63,255 nucleotides of DNA from a virus (lineage: Duplodnaviria > Caudoviricetes): positions 1 through 63,255 of the IMG/VR virus record IMGVR_UViG_3300009034_000035, one strand, 5' to 3'. How positions within the stretch are numbered: position 1 is the stretch's first letter; each line of letters begins with the position of its first letter. The notes beneath the pieces are model-generated. The model saw only the letters and a program-made list of their open reading frames with translations. It was not told the DNA's origin and did not search any database. The position numbers were made by a program, and so were the translations under genes. Shown here one piece after another: positions 2,418 to 51,841 of the stretch.

Positions 2418-2525
2418 TATTGTAAATATATGATATATTTTTATCAAATAATTCATTAATTAGAACATTCTATATATAACCTTTATATACAATTGAATTA
2501 TATAATAATATATGGAGAATAGAAT

Positions 2526-2738
2526 ATGGCTATTAAGATAAAGGTAAAAATAAAGCATGGTAATCCACAAGTAGAATTTATATTCACCATTGATGAGAAT
2601 AACATACTTATACCATTAAATCCAGAGAACCGTATATTTAATGCTACTAACTTTAATCACATATTAAATGGAGTATTATTAATTAAAGGATTAATGGAAA
2701 GAGCTAATATATCTAAGGTAGAGATAGAAGAAGAGTAG
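2526..2738 (+). CDS. Hypothetical protein, probable paralogue of 31671-31886
   Basis: C-terminus LMERANISKVEIEEE resembles FLRANDIKKLEFEEEEE; promoter aacctttatata at 2478. Confidence 0.6.
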   Translation: MAIKIKVKIKHGNPQVEFIFTIDENNILIPLNPENRIFNATNFNHILNGVLLIKGLMERANISKVEIEEE

Positions 2739-2790
2739 AAAGAAACCTTTATATATTATCATATTCTCTTTTTCTATTAGATGAATAGAA

Positions 2791-3084
2791 GTGAAGAAAG
2801 GGTATAAAGTCTATTTAACTCTTTTTCTTCCTTTGCTTATTTATTTTACTACATGCCTACTTACATTCTATTTGGTAGATATAAGACAGACTCATATAGA
2901 GCTAAATCCAAATAGTCAATATAATAATATTATAGGTATAACTATTGTCTCTATGTTAATAGTAACTTGTTCATTCCTTTTCCATGTATTATCCTGGAGA
3001 ATAGGTAAGTCCTTTATTAAACATATTATGAGTCTAATTCTATTTTCAAATTTGATGATTGATCTAATATCTCTTATAGTTTAA
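2791..3084 (+). CDS. Membrane protein (3 TM)
   Basis: Hydrophobic ORF; promoter agaaacctttatata at 2741. Confidence 0.6.
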   Translation: MKKGYKVYLTLFLPLLIYFTTCLLTFYLVDIRQTHIELNPNSQYNNIIGITIVSMLIVTCSFLFHVLSWRIGKSFIKHIMSLILFSNLMIDLISLIV

Positions 3085-3112
3085 CCAAAATGGAAATGTT
3101 TATATAGGATGA

Positions 3113-3241
3113 TAGTATTAGGATTTATATAGAGCTTCATCCTGTGGCAGTCCAGCTTCAGGGTGTGGACAATGCTACATCATAGAAGTATCATGGGTAC
3201 TATGGTGAAGACGGGAAGACAACAAGACCAATCCTATACTA
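3113..3241 (+). ncRNA. Candidate structured ncRNA (multi-stem junction)
   Basis: GC-richer intergenic block with nested G-U-containing stems; TATA at 3099. Confidence 0.4.
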
Positions 3242-3346
3242 CTATAATAGATAAATAAATTGGTTTAGTAAAATATAGATATTGGAAGTGGATTGGAACC
3301 ATGATCCATTCCAAGATAGTTATATACTTTAAAGGAGTGTGAGTGT

Positions 3347-3568
3347 ATGGAGTATGAAGTAAGATATAAATTGATTTTGGATGATTCTTCTGATATTCAG
3401 AAAATTTCTATAGTTGAAGCCATTAATGCTGAATCTATTGAAGAAGCTTTTAGTATAGCTGAAAAATTGAAAGGGATCATATTTCAAAAAGTGTCTACTG
3501 AATTATATCCTAAAATGCATGTTGCTATTGGTATTACTGCAATTATTAATGCATGTCTTAAACAGTAA
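3347..3568 (+). CDS. Hypothetical protein
   Basis: ORF with SD ggag. Confidence 0.6.
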   Translation: MEYEVRYKLILDDSSDIQKISIVEAINAESIEEAFSIAEKLKGIIFQKVSTELYPKMHVAIGITAIINACLKQ

Positions 3569-3597
3569 TTTAATATAATTTATAGTTTAACTTTTTT

Positions 3598-3616
3598 AGA
3601 AAGGTTTATATTCTAG
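3598..3616 (+). promoter_or_regulatory. BRE-TATA promoter
   Basis: agaaaggtttatattctag before the operon starting at 3643. Confidence 0.75.
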
Positions 3617-3642
3617 CATGTGGTATTTCTAAGTGGCTAAAA

Positions 3643-3852
3643 ATGAAAGCAAGAAGATTTAAATGGTCAGGGAGCTATGAATGTCTTACTTGTAGTCATA
3701 TTGATTATTATGATGAAGGGGATATAGTAAGATGTTATGCATGTGGTTCTCCTTTCTTAAAGATGACTTGTTCAACTCATAAGGCTTGTTCAACAGGTAA
3801 GAAACTTAAATGTTGTGAAAGCTGTGATGGAGATTGTTGGTTAAATGAGTAG
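3643..3852 (+). CDS. Cys-rich Zn-finger protein
   Basis: CLTC, CYAC, CESC motifs. Confidence 0.65.
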   Translation: MKARRFKWSGSYECLTCSHIDYYDEGDIVRCYACGSPFLKMTCSTHKACSTGKKLKCCESCDGDCWLNE

Positions 3853-3944
3853 TGAAGAAGAGGAAGATTTTAATATTAGATTAACTAATTTATTAAATTG
3901 GTGTTCATGGTTAAAACGTAGAAAGAAATGGAAGAGAAGAGTAA

Positions 3945-7560: not shown

Positions 7561-7863
7561 GTGATAAAGTAAGAAGTAAAATGCAGTTAATTGGAACATT
7601 TAAAATAATGAAGACAACTATAGATATATGGATGGACGGGGAAGGTACTATTATTTTAGGTGGAATAGCTTGGGTAGAATATTATAAGTATATGGAAATG
7701 AAATTAGAAGAAGAGAAGAGGAAAGAAAAATGATATGTTCTAAATGTGGAGATAAACATCTTAAGTATATAAAGTCCAGGAAGCAGAATTGGAAAGGTAG
7801 AACAGACTATTCAAGTAGACAAAGTTTAGAACCTAGAAAAGATTTTAGAGTTAAGTGTAAAAA

Positions 7864-10421: not shown

Positions 10422-10435
10422 AAGAGGAGAAAATA

Positions 10436-11683
10436 ATGTTTATATGCACATTTAAAGGGGAATGTTCTTATAGAATATCGGATAAGGTATGTACATATAA
10501 AAAATCATGTAGTAGTCGAAAAAAAGCGGATGTAGTTCAGAAATGTAGAATATCTAATATCCAGTTAGAAGACGTTGGTGTAAATCCAACCATCCGCACC
10601 AAACTTAATTTATTAAAAGAGTGTATAATTGAGGATATTAATAGATTTTCTAGTACTACAGATGTTAAATCTACAATTAGAGAAGCTTTAGTAAAACGTA
10701 AATGTTGTGGGTTGAAGGATAAAGTTAAAACATTTTTAAATTTTGAAGAAAAATATTTTCATTATTTAGATTTTAGAGATTTACCCTTGAATAAAGTTAA
10801 TTTTGTGTTAAAAAGATGTAAAACAAAAGATGAGAAAGAATTATGGAGATATGTTAGAGTCATTGTAAGTTCAGCACCTTGGACAGGATATGTAGGTAAA
10901 CAGTTAAAATACTTATTAATGGATGAAGATGAAGAAAAAGTATTTGGTATTATAGGATTAGGTTCAGATTTATTAAATTTAAATCCTAGGAATGTATTTT
11001 TAGGTATTAAAAATATGTCTATTCAAGAGAAATTGAAAAGGATAAATTATTTAATGAATATGTTTGTTTGTGTAGGAGTCTATCCATTCAGTTTATTTAC
11101 AGGAGGAAAATTATTGGCTCTTGTTTCTGTTTCTAATAATATAATAGAAGATTATCAAAAGGTATATGATTCTCCTATTTATGGAATAACAACTACTAGT
11201 TTATATGGGAAGTCTATACAATATGACAGATTAAATGATCCTACGACAAATTTAGCAAATTGGAACTATTTGGGGTTAACTGAAGGATTTCAGAGTACAA
11301 TACATTTATCTTCTTCTACAAGAAGATATATTGATGAATTATTTAATGATCTTAATTTATCTTTACCACATAAAAAAATTACACAGACATTTGTTATAAC
11401 ACATAAATTAGGTAAAGTTTCTAGATTTTTAGGGTTAACTGTTAAAGATATATTGTCACCAGGAGGAAATAAAAGAGGAGTTTATTTTTGTTGGTTGATT
11501 AATAATAATCAAATATTAAAATCATTAGAAAATTGTGAACCTAATTATATAGATAGATCATTTGATGATATTATGGATTATTGGAAAAAAAGATGGTTTA
11601 AAAGAAGATGGAAAAAGTATCATAGTAGAAGTAAAGATTTAGGTAATTATAAATTAGAGGAAATTTTAAATGAGGGAAAATAA
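10436..11683 (+). CDS. DUF4338 / Druantia DruA-like protein
   Basis: GIIGLGSD...PR, YPFSLFTGGKLLAL, ITTTSLYGKSIQYDRL, LGLTEG. Confidence 0.75.
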   Translation: MFICTFKGECSYRISDKVCTYKKSCSSRKKADVVQKCRISNIQLEDVGVNPTIRTKLNLLKECIIEDINRFSSTTDVKSTIREALVKRKCCGLKDKVKTFLNFEEKYFHYLDFRDLPLNKVNFVLKRCKTKDEKELWRYVRVIVSSAPWTGYVGKQLKYLLMDEDEEKVFGIIGLGSDLLNLNPRNVFLGIKNMSIQEKLKRINYLMNMFVCVGVYPFSLFTGGKLLALVSVSNNIIEDYQKVYDSPIYGITTTSLYGKSIQYDRLNDPTTNLANWNYLGLTEGFQSTIHLSSSTRRYIDELFNDLNLSLPHKKITQTFVITHKLGKVSRFLGLTVKDILSPGGNKRGVYFCWLINNNQILKSLENCEPNYIDRSFDDIMDYWKKRWFKRRWKKYHSRSKDLGNYKLEEILNEGK

Positions 11684-22371: not shown

Positions 22372-22547
22372 TTATAACAATGATAACTTTGGTCACTACT
22401 ATCATGCAGGTTGAAGGTAAATTTAAAGCAATGTAGACAAAAGCCACAATATAAAAAGTGTTTAAATAGAAGACGATCAATTCTAGAAAGAAGTTTAGAA
22501 ATTAAGAATCTTTTATCATAATATTGAAAGTTATAGACTCTATTCAT
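22335..22547 (-). CDS. Zn-finger protein
   Basis: CLHC...CYNC; overlaps the LonB stop. Confidence 0.5.
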   Translation of the reverse strand: MNRVYNFQYYDKRFLISKLLSRIDRLLFKHFLYCGFCLHCFKFTFNLHDSSDQSYHCYNCCWEKELICGI

Positions 22548-24699
22548 TTATAAGAACCTCTTTAAGATAATCATCTAATGATTTAGCTCCTATTACTTCT
22601 ATTTTATAATCACTTTCATCTATAGAATGTTTAAGGTTTTTATATGGAATAATAACCTTTTTAAAGTTCCATGTTTCAGCAGCTTTAATTTTTTCATGTA
22701 TTCCTCCCACAGCAGTAACTTCTATTTTATCAGAGGAGCTAATATTAATTTCTCCTGTAACAGCTACATCTTGTCTAATAGGTTTACCTTCTAGAAGAGA
22801 ACATAATAAAATAGTCATAGTAACTCCTGCACTAGGTCCATCTACTCCATAAGATTGAGAGAAGTCTATATGAGTAAAATATTCCTGTTCAATATCTACA
22901 TTATATTTATGAAGGATAACAGATCTAACCTTATCTATAGAGGCTTTAATCCATTTTGATTCTTTAGCTATTCCTGTAACTTTAAAATAACCACTAAGTT
23001 TATTATCTTTAAGTTTATCTTTTTTAATTAATTGGGCCTTAATCTTACTTACTGTACCAGTCATTTCTCCGGAGTAAGAATCACTACTAACAGCTAAACC
23101 ATAAATAGTACCCATTTGATGACCTTTAGGATCTATTTCTAGAAGTTTACCTCTCTCTTCTACATAATGTTCTAATAGTTGTTTCTGGATAGTCTTACAA
23201 TGTTCATTAATAGCTTCTATAACATGTCTAGACTCTACTAATTCAACTTTTTCGTTATGGGCTAAAGTACCAGCAGTTTTAATAACAGCAATTAAAGGTC
23301 TAAATTTAGTAGCTAGACAATCTCTTTTATTAGATCTTCTTCTACCCTCTTTAACTATTTCTATGCAAGCTTCTCTACTGAAAGGTAACAAACTAAATCT
23401 TTTACTTTCTTGAGCAATAAATTGTACATACTTTCTCCTATTAGCAATATTATTATTCATGTCATTATTCATTCTTACTACTTTACCATAACCTATTAAT
23501 CTATCCATAAGAGCAGGATGTATCTTATTTATACTATCAAAGTTACCAGCAGCTAATAGGAAGAATAAAGCTGGAATAGGTTCAGTAGAGACAGCCATAG
23601 CAGAAGTACCACTACCATGAAATTGACTACGCATAGTAACAGGTAAAGCACCATCCTCTAGAACAGATAATAGAGTAACAGCATCTAAAGGACCAAGGTT
23701 CTTAATCTCATCTATATATAAAATACCTAGAGAAGATCTATGTACATCTCCAGCAGTACATCTTTGATGCTCTGGTGTTCCTAAGCCTCCAGTCTGATAT
23801 GGGTCCCAGGCTATAGAACCAAATAGTTGAGCAGAAGTATGACCAGTAGCATCTACAAAAGGAGCAGCTTTAGTCTCATTATTAACTAAAATTTTAGGAG
23901 CATTAGTAGCTTCTGCTCCACCTATACCTTTATTACCTTGTATCTTACCTATTCTATTAAACCATCCTATGAAAAAGCCAAAGAAAATTAAAGATCCACC
24001 TATTCCAAAATAATTAAGATAACTTGGTAAAAAGGTTTTGGTATAATTAAGAAAGCCTATACTTCTAAGGAACATTGGAGGACTATAGTTAATTAGTGGA
24101 TTTTCTACCCAAGGCTTAAACCAAAAAATGAGACCTAATCCTATAAGTAAGGCTCCAAATGCTCCCAAACAAATTCTTGCTAATTTAGTACCAATATTTA
24201 TAAGTCTACCTTTTTTAGCTAATTTCTTCTTTTCTATTTTAACTATTTGACTGCCTTCTCCAGCTTTATGTATACTAATTTTAGGATTAGAAGGTAATAT
24301 CTTATTAGCCCAAGATAAAACATCAAACCTTTTAATTCTATCTTTTTTATAGAGCTTAGTTAGATAATCAGCCATAGCTCTTCCTATAAGAGACTTACCT
24401 GTACCAGGATCACCTAGTAGAAGAAGATAAGGACCAGGAGTAAGTACTTTACTAAAATGGGGCTTTTCTCCTTCTGGATTTAACCAGGGTTTATACCATC
24501 TTTTCTTCTGTAAAACTTTAAGTTTATATAACCATTCATCTAGACAAAGCTGTACCTCATCTAATACTCTATCTTGACCTATAACCCAGTCAAGAAGTTT
24601 ATCTGGTACTGGAAAGTCTTTAGTAGAAGTAAATTCTTCCCAATTCCATTCTTTATTTCTAATTTTAGAAGAGCCTTTACCAAAGAAAGTATTACTTAT
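22540..24699 (-). CDS. lonB: Archaeal membrane-anchored ATP-dependent protease LonB (about 719 aa, ATA start)
   Basis: Frame is open 108 codons upstream of the listed ATG, adding VPDKLLDWVIGQD and Walker A GDPGTGKS; two TM helices; LYIDE; DGPSAG and VGGIHEK Ser-Lys dyad. Confidence 0.95.
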   Translation of the reverse strand: MSNTFFGKGSSKIRNKEWNWEEFTSTKDFPVPDKLLDWVIGQDRVLDEVQLCLDEWLYKLKVLQKKRWYKPWLNPEGEKPHFSKVLTPGPYLLLLGDPGTGKSLIGRAMADYLTKLYKKDRIKRFDVLSWANKILPSNPKISIHKAGEGSQIVKIEKKKLAKKGRLINIGTKLARICLGAFGALLIGLGLIFWFKPWVENPLINYSPPMFLRSIGFLNYTKTFLPSYLNYFGIGGSLIFFGFFIGWFNRIGKIQGNKGIGGAEATNAPKILVNNETKAAPFVDATGHTSAQLFGSIAWDPYQTGGLGTPEHQRCTAGDVHRSSLGILYIDEIKNLGPLDAVTLLSVLEDGALPVTMRSQFHGSGTSAMAVSTEPIPALFFLLAAGNFDSINKIHPALMDRLIGYGKVVRMNNDMNNNIANRRKYVQFIAQESKRFSLLPFSREACIEIVKEGRRRSNKRDCLATKFRPLIAVIKTAGTLAHNEKVELVESRHVIEAINEHCKTIQKQLLEHYVEERGKLLEIDPKGHQMGTIYGLAVSSDSYSGEMTGTVSKIKAQLIKKDKLKDNKLSGYFKVTGIAKESKWIKASIDKVRSVILHKYNVDIEQEYFTHIDFSQSYGVDGPSAGVTMTILLCSLLEGKPIRQDVAVTGEINISSSDKIEVTAVGGIHEKIKAAETWNFKKVIIPYKNLKHSIDESDYKIEVIGAKSLDDYLKEVLINE

Positions 24700-45562: not shown

Positions 45563-46636
45563 ATGAAACCCAATTCTATAACTGGAGTATTTTTAGATGC
45601 AGACTTAGAGAGATTAATAGAAATAGATCTACCTTTAGTTAAGCATCAAGAAGTAATTTCCTATAAAAATAAGAAACTTTCAGAAATTAAATTAGAATAT
45701 GGAGAATTTTGCTTTATGGGAGACTTTCATTATGGTCATGAAAAGTTTAGTAGTACAGTATTACATGGTTATCTTAATTACCTTAAACAACACCCTAATA
45801 TTCAAATTGGATTAATGGGAGATATATTAGAATATGGTCAAGCAAGTAAATATATTAATGAAGAAATATTAAATGTAGATGAACAAATAGAAATGTTTGT
45901 AGCAGACTTTAAGCCTTTAGCTAATAGAATAAAATTTATATTGTGGGGCAATCATGAAGAGAGATATGTAAGATTAAGTAAAAGTAAAAGGTTTATGAGG
46001 AATATAGCATTAGAATTAGGATTAGATCCAGATAAAGATGTTTATGTTCCAGGTCCACAAAAGGGCATATTTGTAGTATTTAAAGCCGGTGATAAAAAAT
46101 ATGGAGCACAATTACATCATAGTAAGACTGGTGCTAGGATAAATCAGGATATTCAGCTTAGAAGAGCAGGTAGTCAAAATGTTGTGGCTATAATTGGACA
46201 TGGACATACACATCGTTTAACATGGAAACCTAGAACATTTAGAACATTAGAAGTAGTAAATGGTAATGTAATGAATATAGTTAGAAGACAATATCTTTTA
46301 GCAAGTGGTTGCTTCTTAAAATATCCAGGTTATGCAGAGAGTAGATCTATGCCTTATACAGAAGTTGGTAGTCCTATAGTAAGATTTCATGCTCAAGAAA
46401 ATAATCTTCAAGAATATGATCTTACAGGATTCTATAAAGAATATTTGGCTAAAGGAGGAAGTATATGGAAGCATGGAAATAGAAAGCTTAATTTTAAATA
46501 TTCAAATAAAAAAGATGAACCTAAAAGTGGTGTTACTTCTGATATACTCAATTTACGTAAATATTCTATTAATGGAGTGGACAGTAGGGGACAGGACCGG
46601 ACAGGAAGAGATGGGAAAGGATTAAATGATAGATAA
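45563..46636 (+). CDS. Calcineurin-like metallophosphoesterase
   Basis: GDFHYG, MGD, GNHE, HH, GHTH motifs; last 20 codons overlap pentamer array 1. Confidence 0.9.
   Translation: MKPNSITGVFLDADLERLIEIDLPLVKHQEVISYKNKKLSEIKLEYGEFCFMGDFHYGHEKFSSTVLHGYLNYLKQHPNIQIGLMGDILEYGQASKYINEEILNVDEQIEMFVADFKPLANRIKFILWGNHEERYVRLSKSKRFMRNIALELGLDPDKDVYVPGPQKGIFVVFKAGDKKYGAQLHHSKTGARINQDIQLRRAGSQNVVAIIGHGHTHRLTWKPRTFRTLEVVNGNVMNIVRRQYLLASGCFLKYPGYAESRSMPYTEVGSPIVRFHAQENNLQEYDLTGFYKEYLAKGGSIWKHGNRKLNFKYSNKKDEPKSGVTSDILNLRKYSINGVDSRGQDRTGRDGKGLNDR
46574..46623 (+). repeat. GGA-NN pentamer array 1 (10 units), candidate guide RNA
   Basis: ggagt ggaca gtagg ggaca ggacc ggaca ggaag agatg ggaaa ggatt. Confidence 0.85.
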
Positions 46637-46648
46637 AAATATATTAGA

Positions 46649-46723
46649 GGAGAGGAGAGGATTGGAGGGGTCTGGATTGGAAAGGAAAGGAGTTGACCGG
46701 AGAGGATTGGAATGGATTGGAGG
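46649..46723 (+). repeat. GGA-NN pentamer array 2 (15 units), candidate guide RNA
   Basis: ggaga ggaga ggatt ggagg ggtct ggatt ggaaa ggaaa ggagt tgacc ggaga ggatt ggaat ggatt ggagg. Confidence 0.92.
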
Positions 46724-46732
46724 TGAAATTTA

Positions 46733-47245
46733 TTGAATAATCAAATTAAAAGTTGGAGTATAACTATAAAGGGTTTATCTCCTTTAATACAAAATAATCC
46801 TAGAAGTATGTTGCTAGATAATCCAGAGAAGATTACACCAGTTAAAGAATTACTTTATCTAAATAAAGAAGGTGAAGTATGTCAACCAGCTACCCATATT
46901 GAACGTTCAATAGCTTATGCAGGATATAAAATTAAAAAGAAATATTCTCCTCTAATAAAAGCATTTTTAATTGTAGAACCTAAATTAATTCTACATAAGA
47001 ATCAAGAATGGGAGTCACTTGAAGAGTCAGTAGTTATTCAAAGAAATAGAGTATTTAAAGAAAGACCTATGATTAAAGACTGGGAATTAACTTTTATTGT
47101 TAAATCTCTTAATCCAGAATTAACTGGTTCAATAATTAAAGCATCTTTAGAAAGGGCTGGAGCTTATTATGGTTTAGGTGACTGGAGAGCACAGAAAGGT
47201 GGTAAGTATGGATTCTTTGAGGTTACAGAATTTAAAGTGGTATAA
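46733..47245 (+). CDS. Stand-alone Cas7/RAMP-like protein (putative Vipr-like effector)
   Basis: N-terminal strand ITIKGLSPL, QPATHIERSI helix, WELTF strand, C-terminal Gly-rich loop AGAYYGLGDWRAQKGGKYGFFEV; flanked by pentamer arrays. Confidence 0.8.
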   Translation: MNNQIKSWSITIKGLSPLIQNNPRSMLLDNPEKITPVKELLYLNKEGEVCQPATHIERSIAYAGYKIKKKYSPLIKAFLIVEPKLILHKNQEWESLEESVVIQRNRVFKERPMIKDWELTFIVKSLNPELTGSIIKASLERAGAYYGLGDWRAQKGGKYGFFEVTEFKVV

Positions 47246-47250
47246 TAATT

Positions 47251-47315
47251 GGATTGGAACTGATCGGATTTGAGGGGTGTGGAAGGGAAGGGATCGGAGA
47301 GGAATGGAAAGGTTA
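47251..47315 (+). repeat. GGA-NN pentamer array 3 (13 units), candidate guide RNA
   Basis: ggatt ggaac tgatc ggatt tgagg ggtgt ggaag ggaag ggatc ggaga ggaat ggaaa ggtta. Confidence 0.92.
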
Positions 47316-47337: not shown

Positions 47338-47706
47338 ATGGGAATAGAAATTTGTGATTGGTGTGGTAAAGGAATTAAAGATGAAAATGAATTTAAAATA
47401 TGGCTTCCTAGATGGTTAGATAAAATAATAATAAAGAATTTAAATTTGAAATATATAACAAGTTTACATTTTTGTTCAGAACCATGTTTAATTACATTTC
47501 TAAAGAATAAAGGACAAGATAGAAAACTTCCCGATAAAAATAGAATTATAATGAATAATGATAAAGATAATAAAATTAATAAGATTTGGGATAAAGATAA
47601 ATTAAAGAAGGCTATGAGAGAAGCTAAAAGGAAAGATAGATTATGGAGAAAAGAAGAAAAGGAAATTGCTATTAATGCCAAAAATAGAAATAAAAGGATG
47701 GGTTGA
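47338..47706 (+). CDS. TRASH/MYM-like Zn-finger protein
   Basis: CDWCGK...HFCSEPCL. Confidence 0.6.
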   Translation: MGIEICDWCGKGIKDENEFKIWLPRWLDKIIIKNLNLKYITSLHFCSEPCLITFLKNKGQDRKLPDKNRIIMNNDKDNKINKIWDKDKLKKAMREAKRKDRLWRKEEKEIAINAKNRNKRMG

Positions 47707-47860
47707 AGAGGATGATAAAGAACCAATTTCAAATTTACCAAGCAAATGTCCTAAATGTGGAGAGAAGTTACGTAGAGTTGATGCTCTTAGGACATGTGGA
47801 ATGTATATGGTTTATTGTCCAGATAGTACATGTAGATGGTGTATGATCTATGAAGAATAA
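47666..47860 (+). CDS. Zn-ribbon protein
   Basis: CPKCG...CP...C. Confidence 0.6.
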   Translation: MLLMPKIEIKGWVEEDDKEPISNLPSKCPKCGEKLRRVDALRTCGMYMVYCPDSTCRWCMIYEE

Positions 47861-48022: not shown

Positions 48023-48604
48023 ATGAATAAAAAAGAAATTAGAAGAGACTTTAAAGGATGGGCAGTTGATTTAGTATATAGGCTACAAGATGGTATATGT
48101 GCTAAAGAGAAATGTAGTAAGACTTTAGCTAATGGCTTTCATAGGCATCATGAGGATGGAGACTCTACTAATAATTCTATAGAGAATTTAAAACTATTCT
48201 GTGCAGAATGTCATGGAGGAGAAGCTTATGCAACTTATATAAAGAAGAAGAAGAAAGGATTAAGTGATGTAGAAGCAGCTATAAATATGGCCTTAGAAGG
48301 TAAACTTAGTGGAGCAGCAATGGATAAGCTTCTTGATGCTATTAAATTAGGACTAGGATTAACTAGAGAAATATATGGTAAAGGTATGGAACAAGTACCA
48401 GCTAGTATAAAGATGGAGCAGTATCTATTATCTAGTGGAATATTACTTAAAGAATATGAGAAAGGGGTAAAAAAGGGCATTGAACTAGGGGCTTCTATAT
48501 CTAATATTGAAGTAGCTAAGGTATTAGTTAACAATTTAGAGTTAAGTAAGAAAGTTTCACAGTTATTACAAGTAATAGCTTCTCAAGTTAAGAAGGAAAA
48601 GTAG
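48023..48604 (+). CDS. HNH endonuclease domain protein with helical C-terminus
   Basis: RHHEDGDSTNNSIENLKLFCAECH. Confidence 0.85.
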   Translation: MNKKEIRRDFKGWAVDLVYRLQDGICAKEKCSKTLANGFHRHHEDGDSTNNSIENLKLFCAECHGGEAYATYIKKKKKGLSDVEAAINMALEGKLSGAAMDKLLDAIKLGLGLTREIYGKGMEQVPASIKMEQYLLSSGILLKEYEKGVKKGIELGASISNIEVAKVLVNNLELSKKVSQLLQVIASQVKKEK

Positions 48605-49350: not shown

Positions 49351-50501
49351 TGGGTAAAGTAAAAAGAATAAAAGATGAAACTATAAAGGATAAAGCTACA
49401 GATTCTAAGACTCTTATTGATCAACAAGAAGAAATGAAAGGTAAAATAAAGAAAAGACTAGAAGACCTTACTGGTATTGGACCTACTACTGCTACTAAAC
49501 TTAGAGAATTTGGATATTCATTTATGGGTTTAGCTACAGCAAGAGCAGACATAGTAAGTTCAGAAATGGGACCTAGTGTAAGTATAGCAAAGGCTACAGC
49601 ATGGATTAAAACTGCACAAGAGAATGTATTAGCAGTAATGACCCCTAAGACTGGTAGAGAAGTAGCTAAAGAACGTAAACTTAAAAGAATATTCTATAAG
49701 ACTAATTCTTTAGATCTTAATAAGTTATTAGGTGGAGGAATAGCTAGTTTAAGAACTACAGGTTTCAGTGGAAGATTTAGTACTGGTAAAACACAAATTA
49801 TATTTAATGCTATAGTAGACTGTTTATCAAGGACAAAGTATGCATATTGTCCAAAATGTGATTATATACATGAAAAAGTAGTAGAAACTTGTAAGCAATG
49901 TGGAGAAGAAATGTTTAGAAAAGCTGCATATATAGAAACAGAACCTGATACATTTAGTGATGCTAGGATAGAAGAAATAGCAGCAGCTACTAATAAGGAT
50001 ATAGACTTAGGTAATTTATGGGTATTTGGTGCAGAAAATATACCTACTGCTAAAGGACAATATCTTCAGTATAAGATTATACAGAAGCTTATAGAAAAGA
50101 AGAAGGAGAATATAGGCTTTATAGCAGTAGATAGTTTTACTGCTAAGTTTAGACCTGGATATAGTAGAAGAGAAATGTTACCTGTAAGAACTAGAGAGTT
50201 TACTGAGCATTTTCTCATTATAGATTATTTAGCTGCAAGGTATAATATAGCATGGGCACTTAGCTGTCAAGTTATAGGTGGAGTAGATGCTGGTCAACAG
50301 TTAGGTACTAAGATGAAGACAGGTGATATATTCTATCCTGTAGGAGGAGAATTTCTATTACATAGTATGACTACATGGTGTCAAGTAATGCAGATTAAAA
50401 GTGAGTTATATAAAGCTATGATATTTGACAGCAGCTATTTGCCTAAGGGTACTTGTGAATTTATGTTGACTGAAAGAGGAATAGTAGATGGTGTTAAATA
50501 A
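49350..50501 (+). CDS. radA: Archaeal RadA recombinase with Zn-ribbon insertion
   Basis: HhH LEDLTGIGPTTATKL, LNKLLGGG, Walker A GRFSTGKTQ, YIETE..F..RI, VDS..FR, PVGG..L.H, DSSYLP. Confidence 0.93.
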   Translation: MGKVKRIKDETIKDKATDSKTLIDQQEEMKGKIKKRLEDLTGIGPTTATKLREFGYSFMGLATARADIVSSEMGPSVSIAKATAWIKTAQENVLAVMTPKTGREVAKERKLKRIFYKTNSLDLNKLLGGGIASLRTTGFSGRFSTGKTQIIFNAIVDCLSRTKYAYCPKCDYIHEKVVETCKQCGEEMFRKAAYIETEPDTFSDARIEEIAAATNKDIDLGNLWVFGAENIPTAKGQYLQYKIIQKLIEKKKENIGFIAVDSFTAKFRPGYSRREMLPVRTREFTEHFLIIDYLAARYNIAWALSCQVIGGVDAGQQLGTKMKTGDIFYPVGGEFLLHSMTTWCQVMQIKSELYKAMIFDSSYLPKGTCEFMLTERGIVDGVK

Positions 50502-51841
50502 TGGATGAAGAAAGAGCTAGTAAAGTTGAAGATAAAACAGAAGCAAAAGAATCTCCTAAAGCACAAGTTAAAAGTGAACTAGGTCTTGATCACCTTAAGA
50601 CTTTTAGTAGATTTTTAGTAAAAGCTTTAAAGAGTATTCCAGATCTACAGGAAAATACTATAACTAAACATTTAGGTTGTCCACCAAAAGAAAGAGAAAA
50701 GATACAATTTAATATTCCATGTTACTTAATGACACAAACTTGCTATGCTTTTAATATGTATTTAAAGAAGAATACTAAAATTTCTCTTATTACTAACTTT
50801 AGTAGTGGAAGTACAGATTATTCGGCTGCTGAATATGATCTTATTAGAATAAAGAGAGATACTAGAATACCTCTCCTTATAGGAGGATGGACTTTCTTTA
50901 AGTATAAAGATGTTAATCTCTTAGCTTGGAATTGGTTCCAAGGAATGAGTCCACATGCTGAAATACATTTTAATAAGAAGGATAGAAAGTTAGTAGAGGA
51001 ATTATTTAAAGATATAAGAAAATTCATGAAAGAATTTAATTTTCTTAAAAATGAAAAGCTTAAAGTTATAGGAGGCTATCACTTTGACTTTTTAGAATAT
51101 CCTAAATTAGATTGGAATAATATAATACTTACTGAAGAACTTAAGGATGAAATATTGCTTAATATAATCTATCCTTTAGCTAATAAAGAAGCATGTAAAA
51201 AGCATGATATACCTTGGAGAAGAGGAGTATTATTAGGAGGAGAACCAGGTACAGGTAAGACTCTATTAGCTAAAGTATTATGTAATTTATTAACAGATGT
51301 AACAGTTATATGGGTTACTGCTGAAAGTATAGATGAGGCTAGACATGTAAGAGCATTATTTCAAGCTGCTAGATACTTTGCTCCTACATTAGTAATAATG
51401 GAAGACTTAGACTTTTTTGGTCAAGATAGAGCTATAGAAAGAAGTCCTGTAATAGGAGAATTACTTAATCAATTAGATGGTAATAGTCCTAATGAAGGAG
51501 TATTTATATTAGCATCTAGTAATAGACCAGGACTATTAGATAAAGCTTTAAAAAATAGACCTGGTAGATTAGACGTTAAAATAGCAGTAGAACTACCAGA
51601 ATTAAAGGAAAGAACAAAGATGATTAATTTATTTAGTAAAGGTAAAATGTTTCATACATACTTTGACTGTAATAGTTTAGCTAGTCAAACTAAAGGATTT
51701 ACTGGTGCTCATATAAAAGAAGTATTTGTTTATGCAGCTTTAGATACTATTAAGAAGGGTAGAAATTCTATACATAATGAAAGTATACTTAAAGCTATTA
51801 AAAGATTAAAAGAGAAAGTAGATGTACCATATAAGGTGTAG
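50501..51841 (+). CDS. Classical AAA+ ATPase (CDC48/PAN/BCS1-like)
   Basis: RGVLLGGEPGTGKT, IMEDLD, LLNQLDG, SNRPGLLDKALKNRPGRLD, GFTGAHIKE. Confidence 0.93.
   Translation: MDEERASKVEDKTEAKESPKAQVKSELGLDHLKTFSRFLVKALKSIPDLQENTITKHLGCPPKEREKIQFNIPCYLMTQTCYAFNMYLKKNTKISLITNFSSGSTDYSAAEYDLIRIKRDTRIPLLIGGWTFFKYKDVNLLAWNWFQGMSPHAEIHFNKKDRKLVEELFKDIRKFMKEFNFLKNEKLKVIGGYHFDFLEYPKLDWNNIILTEELKDEILLNIIYPLANKEACKKHDIPWRRGVLLGGEPGTGKTLLAKVLCNLLTDVTVIWVTAESIDEARHVRALFQAARYFAPTLVIMEDLDFFGQDRAIERSPVIGELLNQLDGNSPNEGVFILASSNRPGLLDKALKNRPGRLDVKIAVELPELKERTKMINLFSKGKMFHTYFDCNSLASQTKGFTGAHIKEVFVYAALDTIKKGRNSIHNESILKAIKRLKEKVDVPYKV

Follow-up and report, generated by a model that had tools for sequence, protein, structure and literature searches.

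What kind of system does a small viral gene serve when it stands among arrays of repeats with a period of 5 nt? This question is raised by the virus record IMGVR_UViG_3300009034_000035, the whole of which (63,255 bases) was analysed and is called the window here. Within it, three arrays of pentamers, each composed of a near-constant GGA and two free bases (GGA-NN), flank a 170-aa gene on the + strand. We conclude, with a probability of about 0.82, that this locus is a Viral Interference Programmable Repeat (VIPR) cassette carried by a tailed virus with archaeal-type replication genes, and that it would serve the guide-RNA-directed silencing of a competitor at the level of double-stranded DNA (dsDNA). 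VIPR was described in 2026 (10.64898/2026.04.26.720920, 10.64898/2026.04.26.720927). Protomers of the Vipr protein are reported to polymerise on guide RNAs named vrRNAs, one per YNNGG repeat, such that the GGY trinucleotide is flipped out and held and the NN dinucleotide is presented (10.64898/2026.04.26.720927). The NN bases pair with dsDNA, with one target base skipped per unit (10.64898/2026.04.26.720920, 10.64898/2026.04.26.720927), and the reported outcome is transcriptional silencing of competing phages and satellites (10.64898/2026.04.26.720920).

The three arrays, all on the + strand, were designated A1 (46574..46623), A2 (46649..46723) and A3 (47251..47315). A1 comprises 10 GGA-NN pentamers, 8 with an exact GGA and two degenerate (GTAGG and AGATG); A2 comprises 15, of which 13 are exact and two degenerate (GGTCT and TGACC); and A3 comprises 13, including a final GGTTA, with an exact GGA in 9 of its first 12 units. 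Over all 38 units, the first position is G in 34, the second is G in 37 and the third is A in 35, which amounts to 89-97% conservation of the fixed positions, and C never occupies the third position. The variable positions carry almost no information (0.04 bits at position 4 and 0.09 bits at position 5), with 14 of the 16 possible dinucleotides present. These coordinates and unit counts agree exactly with an initial annotation of the sequence, which had described three period-5 tracts of 10, 15 and 13 units with a near-constant GGA and a free NN. That annotation had also seen no such tracts elsewhere, and scanning both strands of the entire window returned no GGA period-5 run of at least 5 units besides A1, A2 and A3. 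One detail of its description of the locus had to be corrected, namely the position of A1, which is not intergenic and instead forms the last 20 codons of the upstream open reading frame (ORF; 45563-46636). A first-order Markov model of the window, simulated 100 times, produced longest GGA period-5 runs of 3-5 units, both strands considered, compared with 15 in the real sequence. When the array bases themselves were shuffled 2,000 times, a run of 10 units was reached in 2 shuffles and a run of 15 units in none.

The gene between A2 and A3 (vipr; 46733..47245, + strand) begins with a TTG start codon and encodes a 170-aa protein for which no Pfam, NCBIfam or PADLOC family was found and whose sole PHROG match is a family of unknown function. 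Its only significant match among PDB sequences, obtained with phmmer, is 36pp chain D, the 'SUSP1 Vipr protein' (E 2.6e-5, residues 87-158). An exhaustive HMMER search of 1.84 billion proteins returned 936 cluster representatives of homologues at E<=1e-3, and a 106-member family profile matches SUSP1 Vipr (36pp_D) over its full length (positions 1-176, E 3.1e-26). The initial annotation had likened this locus to VIPR systems, and the comparison is borne out both by the published papers and by the identity of the gene as a Vipr in these searches. An AlphaFold2 (AF2) model built with the family alignment has a mean predicted local distance difference test (pLDDT) of 94.6 and replaced an earlier, poor model from 4 sequences (pLDDT 60.8). 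The modelled elements follow the order beta1-alpha1-beta2-[hairpin]-beta3-alpha2-[Gly loop]-beta4, which corresponds to an RRM core with a beta-hairpin, the thumb (residues 94-114, containing R111), inserted before beta3 and a glycine-rich loop (residues 147-160) before the last strand; the G-loop motif GLGDWR occupies residues 147-152. When the model was compared with the PDB using Foldseek, the best matches were type VII Cas7, Csm3 and Cmr4 (E 6e-8, template modelling score 0.68). VIA-align against 48,161 chains gave Z scores of 12.8, 12.7 and 12.1 for Cmr4-like and Csm3 chains, and among the best 50 matches listed, ranks 1-44 are all CRISPR-Cas entries, with the first unrelated entry at rank 45. 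Because the top matches in both comparisons are Cas7-family RAMPs, the RAMP hallmarks that had been called from the sequence were called correctly. From sequence and model, the 170-aa protein is a member of the Vipr family with a predicted Cas7-type RAMP fold. The ORF is intact, and four homologues of 80-89% identity all share 127 of the 170 residues; homologues P0002-P0004, within that range, are on short contigs. A tight alignment search of IMG/VR found no close relative of the locus, and GTDB genomes gave distant relatives only.

Comparison with the type II VIPR of Escherichia phage SUSP1 (PDB 36pp) shows how far the likeness extends. The proteins are homologous over their full length and share the Asp-Trp-Arg of the G-loop and the thumb Arg, and both loci lie in viral genomes without cas genes and have arrays on both sides of the gene, on the gene strand, with a 5-nt period, a fixed GG and a free NN. 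The SUSP1 arrays (locus L061) contain 12, 16, 15 and 7 units. The loci differ in the third fixed base, for which 35 of the 38 window units have A and 46 of the 50 SUSP1 units have T or C. The proteins also differ in length (170 aa with a shortened helical region in the window versus 202 aa in SUSP1), as does the spacing between array and gene (9 nt and 5 nt versus about 100 nt). SUSP1 has vap1 and a conserved pseudoknot tail, neither of which was found at the window locus, where no neighbouring ORF matched the SUSP1 locus and hence no vap1 homologue was detected. Finally, SUSP1 infects Escherichia, whereas the host of the window virus is probably archaeal.

The repeats of the window depart from the canonical GGY (YNNGG) consensus. 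Because the discovery paper admits 'a related consensus' in its definition of the repeat (10.64898/2026.04.26.720920), GGA bars the locus from the canonical subtype and not from the VIPR family. Non-canonical arrays of the forms NNNGG, YNNNG and NNNNG are reported in the same paper (10.64898/2026.04.26.720920), and handles, or fixed trinucleotides, of the types GAC/NN, CAC/NN, WGT/NN and TGH/NN are reported in another (10.64898/2026.10.21.760802). The window locus is like these in that its fixed trinucleotide differs from GGY while a Vipr-like fold still adjoins the array; its GGA/NN, and the AGC/NN of related loci, differ from the non-canonical handles that are named. The initial annotation had proposed that an archaeal-virus GGA/NN variant may be undescribed. 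In favour of this proposal, GGA proved to be a feature of a clade and is unnamed in the texts of 10.64898/2026.04.26.720920 (where GGA appears only as an engineered mutant), 10.64898/2026.10.21.760802 and 10.64898/2026.10.15.759431, and a literature search returned no VIPR paper using ANNGG, RNNGG, GGANN or GGRNN repeats. The proposal must be tempered, however, as non-canonical pentamers had already been reported and the figures and supplements of these papers may cover GGA. AGC/NN is likewise not among the handles named in the texts of the VIPR papers. The system in the window is therefore of a known kind, VIPR, and the part that is distinctive is the fixed A.

The protein also resembles Csm3, Cmr4 and type VII Cas7, which form the backbone of class 1 effectors, in its RRM core, glycine-rich loop and thumb hairpin, and Cas7 subunits and Vipr are both reported to polymerise on guide RNA with a fixed step (10.64898/2026.04.26.720920, 10.64898/2026.04.26.720927). 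In contrast to class 1 Cas7 proteins, with which its identity is 9-17%, it is accompanied by no CRISPR repeats or spacers, no Cas5, Cas6, Cas10 or Cas1, and no match to a Cas model. The step itself differs, being 5 nt with 2 pairing bases in VIPR and 6 nt with 5 pairing bases in Cas7 effectors. The initial annotation had noted that cas1, cas3, cas5, cas6 and a CRISPR array are missing, in keeping with a PADLOC scan that matched no Cas family in 70 of the 81 ORFs of at least 90 aa (11 were omitted, namely the open-ended last ORF and frames that overlap others or run antisense) and with Tandem Repeats Finder, which reported no CRISPR-like array in the window. The fold is thus shared with class 1 CRISPR-Cas effectors, and the system is not.

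Flanking 5-nt periodicity at homologue loci had been named as a check on the initial annotation, and it is present. We assembled 60 loci with Vipr relatives, 56 from IMG/VR and 4 from GTDB genomes, together with the SUSP1 locus. Among the 60, period-5 GG arrays number 161 on the gene strand and 3 on the opposite strand, and 45 loci contain at least one. By third base, these loci divide into 34 with a pyrimidine, 6 with A (L001-L004, L044 and L055) and 5 with a mixture. A maximum-likelihood tree built from 54 Viprs places the window and L001-L004 in a clade (100/100) in which GGA is used by all five members, and the sister group L005-L007 (99/88), whose proteins are almost as short as the window Vipr, uses GGY. 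A second GGA clade, comprising L044 and L055 (99/89), stands elsewhere in the tree, so the third-base label needs at least two changes. On the basis of these sequences, GGA is a clade trait.

Several loci scored as having no GG array carry other pentamers, which are AGC/NN in L028, L079 and L082 and CGC-like in L041. Their period-5 tracts read C-NN-AG at L028:3131-3223 and C-NN-CG at L041:2952-3010, and the Viprs of these two loci are without the G-loop Asp. The L079 Vipr has Gly-Ser-Asn-Arg where the window protein has Gly-Asp-Trp-Arg. Near-identical loci show where arrays change: among L001, L003 and L004, whose vipr genes share 97.7% nucleotide identity, the array differences fall on NN in 6 of 6, 2 of 2, 6 of 8 and 7 of 9 cases, and one array differs at one fixed position only. 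Between two downstream arrays in L001 (2674-2741) and L004 (3040-3107) lies a remnant that resembles the 3' end of vipr (...FGLFEVAEFREVN, then a stop codon), which suggests that arrays are gained with gene ends via recombination between cassettes.

The residues that read the handle in SUSP1 Vipr are reported as H17 and D177 for the first G, R138 and W178 for the second G, and E71, M72, C173, T175 and R179 for the pocket of the third base, which 'sterically excludes purines' (10.64898/2026.04.26.720927). In the window protein, D150, W151, R152 and R111 align with and equal D177, W178, R179 and R138, such that three of the four residues that bind the two guanines are kept (D150, W151 and R111). 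Four of the five positions of the third-base pocket differ, with T54, H55, Y146 and L148 in place of E71, M72, C173 and residue 175. Of 44 loci with GG arrays, 43 have Asp at the position of window residue 150, compared with 3 of the 15 loci that lack such arrays (Fisher test, 5e-9, for loci that are kin and not independent). At the sequence level, the data support a G-loop that reads the handle. In the alignment of homologue loci, no single residue accounts for the change between A and Y. Tyr146 was rejected as the determinant, as it occurs in four of the five members of the window clade and is absent in L002 and in the second GGA clade; Asn21 was rejected as well, as it is shared by the 7 GGA loci, the window included, and by 6 GGY loci too.

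The arrays and genes of the locus nearly abut. A2 ends 9 nt before the TTG start of vipr, and its last unit plus the following TGA forms GGAGGTGA (46719..46726, + strand), a Shine-Dalgarno-like sequence 6 nt before TTG with a presumed function in translation initiation. The same junction (GGAGGTGA) occurs in the relative L002, and the last A2 unit reads as a candidate ribosome-binding site for vipr. Because this unit would serve both roles, we hypothesise a feedback in which coating of A2 could throttle the synthesis of Vipr. A3 starts 5 nt past the vipr stop codon and leaves about 20 nt to the start of the following gene; both it and the L002 arrays immediately precede the ribosome-binding sites of the genes that follow. 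No terminator-like site was found at the locus. Sigma-70-like sites in the region are not enriched (10 found compared with 16.1 expected from shuffles). One such site (47217-47246) consists of TTGAGG, an 18-nt spacer and a TG-extended TATAAT, with 10 of 12 matches, and ends 4 nt before A3; its relevance is doubtful in a probably archaeal virus. In L002 (2357-2401), the array preceding vipr has a TTTATATA box about 30 nt upstream of its first unit, a placement like that of an archaeal TATA box for a start immediately ahead of the array, and no box as clear as this one was found upstream of the window arrays.

By analogy with the characterised systems, we infer that A1, A2 and A3 would be co-transcribed with the + strand operon. 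Vipr would then bind the arrays with one protomer per pentamer, burying GGA and exposing the two variable bases, and the resulting filament would read dsDNA through a gapped code with a one-base skip and silence a competing mobile element. A grip on one GGA per subunit with display of NN had been proposed in the initial annotation and follows, by homology, from the mechanism solved for SUSP1; that annotation had also suggested competing viruses or host genes as the probable aim, and no target was found that would bear on this suggestion. Several observations weigh against this reading. The mechanism of SUSP1 cannot be transferred unchanged to GGA repeats, because the SUSP1 third-base pocket is reported to exclude purines, and perturbation of GGY, with GGY>GGA among the tested substitutions, is reported to have abolished silencing (10.64898/2026.04.26.720920). 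SUSP1 H17, which contacts the first G, corresponds to N21. The window protein has a much shortened form of the helical region making up the skip-base pocket of SUSP1 (170 versus 202 aa, gapped at residues 28-36 in comparison with other members of the family), so the one-base skip is not assured. Degenerate units are present in A1 (2 of 10), A2 (2 of 15) and A3 (4 of 13). SUSP1 vrRNAs are reported to end in a conserved pseudoknot tail (10.64898/2026.04.26.720920, 10.64898/2026.04.26.720927); no conserved 3' tail follows the three window arrays, whose downstream flanks share only an A/T-rich start, and no Rfam match was found at the arrays. After A2 there is no room for such a tail, and the distant GGA locus L055 has a repeated tail.

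The search for targets adds to these points. Patterns were derived from A1, A2 and A3 under the published one-base-skip rule (NN, one free base, NN and so on), and searches of IMG/VR, JGI metagenomes and GTDB genomes with the three guides yielded no target, only seeds at chance level. Scans of IMG/VR gave 3, 1, 0, 1 and 0 seed matches; the A2 seeds extended to only 20-22 of 30 positions, and an A3 seed in a giant-virus bin, which extended to 22 of 26, was taken as chance. Scans of JGI metagenomes gave 0 and 0 matches, and those of GTDB genomes gave 0, 0 and 1, the single match being one of A1 (20 of 20) in a Clostridia metagenome-assembled genome of 59% GC content, where by our estimate about 1 chance match is expected. 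No self-target was found in the window at skips of 0-3 bases, with nothing above shuffled guides except the arrays themselves; an absence of self-targets is likewise reported in the discovery paper for its systems (10.64898/2026.04.26.720920). None of 136 guides from other loci scored above shuffled guides on the window, and no cross-targeting was detected among the window and four related virus records (G001-G004). These null results say little, because relatives of the window virus are nearly absent from IMG/VR and GTDB genomes.

We considered whether other explanations could account for the locus. The one that deserves the most attention, though we regard it as unlikely, is a VIPR-type ribonucleoprotein with another pairing geometry or target class, i.e., a skip of other than one base or an RNA target. 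The truncation of the helical bundle that shapes the one-base pocket, the changes at four of the five third-base pocket positions and the lack of a target under the one-base-skip rule would all fit such an explanation. However, scans of the window with skips of 0, 2 or 3 bases were also null against shuffled guides, the sister GGY clade has proteins almost as short, and competitors of this virus are probably missing from the searched databases, given that not even its closest relatives are found in IMG/VR or GTDB genomes. A decaying or idle cassette, in which protein and repeats are relics that guide nothing, is improbable. It could explain the degenerate units in all three arrays, the absorption of A1 into the upstream ORF, the failure to find targets and the dispensability of the cassette, which is absent from the closest relative, L075. 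Decay is difficult to reconcile, however, with an intact ORF of such strong residue conservation, with the retention of the RNA contacts D150, W151, R152 and R111, or with the 89-97% conservation of the fixed positions, and internal degeneracy is reported as frequent in active vrRNAs (10.64898/2026.04.26.720920).

We give still less credence to repeats that act mainly in cis, whereby Vipr would bind its own mRNA leader and nearby ribosome-binding sites and no trans guides would be made. This explanation draws on the end of A2 in the vipr ribosome-binding site, on the placement of A3 and the L002 arrays directly upstream of those of downstream genes, and on the lack of a tail or terminator between arrays and genes. 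It leaves unexplained why a hypervariable NN accompanies a conserved GGA and why the related record G002 has dispersed extra arrays, and the demonstrated function of the family is guidance in trans (10.64898/2026.04.26.720920), which does not preclude an additional effect in cis. Low-complexity, G-rich sequence that arose by chance next to an unrelated small gene has only the low complexity of the tracts in its favour and has a negligible probability, as simulated runs reach at most 5 units and strand-specific arrays accompany the gene at 45 of 60 homologue loci, findings that already refute it. Silencing of a competitor by a VIPR cassette thus remains the preferred reading.

The genes around the arrays delimit the cassette. 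Upstream, the ORF that ends in A1 (45563..46636, + strand) encodes a Mre11/SbcD-type metallophosphoesterase ('DNA repair exonuclease'). Genes of this type repeatedly precede vipr cassettes, and the homology of the ORF to relatives stops where A1 starts. Downstream, in order and on the + strand, are genes for a 122-aa protein whose N-terminus has a Cys cluster and whose tail is rich in Lys and Arg (47338..47706), a 64-aa zinc-ribbon protein (47666..47860) and a 193-aa HNH endonuclease (48023..48604). In the closest relative found, L075 (site at 2501-3931), the DUF488 protein is 69% identical, the Mre11/SbcD-like exonuclease 67%, the zinc ribbon 41% and the HNH endonuclease 58%, and between exonuclease and zinc ribbon there is a 69-aa ORF with no vipr and no arrays. 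Because L075 lacks vipr and arrays at this homologous site, the segment 46574-47706 (A1, A2, vipr, A3 and the 122-aa gene) is a cassette, present as an indel relative to L075, of which the zinc-ribbon gene, also found in G002, marks the right edge. The exonuclease, zinc ribbon and HNH endonuclease belong to the backbone, as all are present in the vipr-less L075; the exonuclease and the HNH endonuclease were on this ground rejected as dedicated VIPR accessories. The 122-aa gene is specific to the cassette, has only weak YHS/zinc-finger matches and no relative in the 61 loci L001-L061, and is possibly an accessory (vap-like) or a passenger.

In 5 of 11 loci with an exonuclease homologue, vipr is directly downstream, with GGA, GGT and AGC among their repeat types. 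L079 and L080, two IMG/VR loci from one sample, have flanks that are 98.5% and 95.8% identical and a swapped cassette in between, which consists in L079 (3418-4273) of a Vipr with the G-loop GIGSNR followed by about 50 AGC-NN pentamers and in L080 (1963-2931) of a Vipr with GIGDWR and GGA-NN arrays. From this recurrence and this swap, we conclude that the site is either a hotspot or loosely linked to the exonuclease. G002 retains vipr, zinc ribbon, HNH endonuclease, RadA and ERCC4 in the order of the window without the exonuclease. Its record (L068) also has extra GGA-NN arrays at 725-769 and 7680-7739 (9 and 12 units), 2.6-9.6 kb from its vipr (10422-10931), and these distant arrays resemble the 'solo vrRNAs' of 10.64898/2026.10.15.759431.

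A more specific proposal, which we put forward tentatively and regard as possible rather than probable, is that GGA/NN constitutes a separate VIPR specificity class. According to this proposal, a rebuilt pocket would accept adenine, so GGA and GGY guides would not be interchangeable; cassettes (GGA, GGT, AGC or none) would be swapped downstream of the exonuclease; and the last repeat would act as the ribosome-binding site of vipr and provide built-in feedback. That related viruses swap whole cassettes of Vipr and repeats suggests that the fixed trinucleotide may diversify under pressure.

The remainder of the window is consistent with a tailed virus, encoding a portal, a prohead protease, a capsid and a tail tube. 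Further genes encode a Topo VI-A/Spo11 Toprim protein, a LonB-type protease, a RadA/Rad51 homologue, an ERCC4 nuclease and a family B polymerase, whose best matches among cultured viruses are haloarchaeal tailed viruses (23-25% identity). No close cellular relative of the RadA-like gene was found. Judged by gene content, the host is likely archaeal. The protease gene, of the archaeal LonB type (22540-24375), is among the few genes on the minus strand. Two other + strand ORFs matched families in the defence-system scan. One (10436-11683) matches the Druantia DruA family (DUF4338; Pfam E 2.7e-25, PADLOC E 9e-25), and its true start may lie downstream, because ARAGORN predicts a tRNA-Gly(TCC) at 10526-10601, within the first 170 bases of the ORF. 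The other (50501-51841) encodes an AAA+ ATPase with IetA-like PADLOC matches (E 3.5e-21).

The VIPR code was worked out on the GGY repeats of one phage clade, and the natural use of GGA in two clades contrasts with the SUSP1 pocket, which is reported to exclude purines. The GGA clades, together with the neighbouring AGC cassette and its changed G-loop, show that the handle co-evolves with the protein, and they single out the G-loop Asp as a candidate marker of GG handles. With a 170-aa Vipr, abutting arrays and no tail, the window locus is among the most compact of the examined family members. Natural orthogonal pairs of protein and repeat would serve multiplexed programmable repression and tests of how the handle is read. 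If GGA/NN is indeed a separate class, diversification of the handle might stop the solo vrRNAs of rivals from borrowing the Vipr protein.

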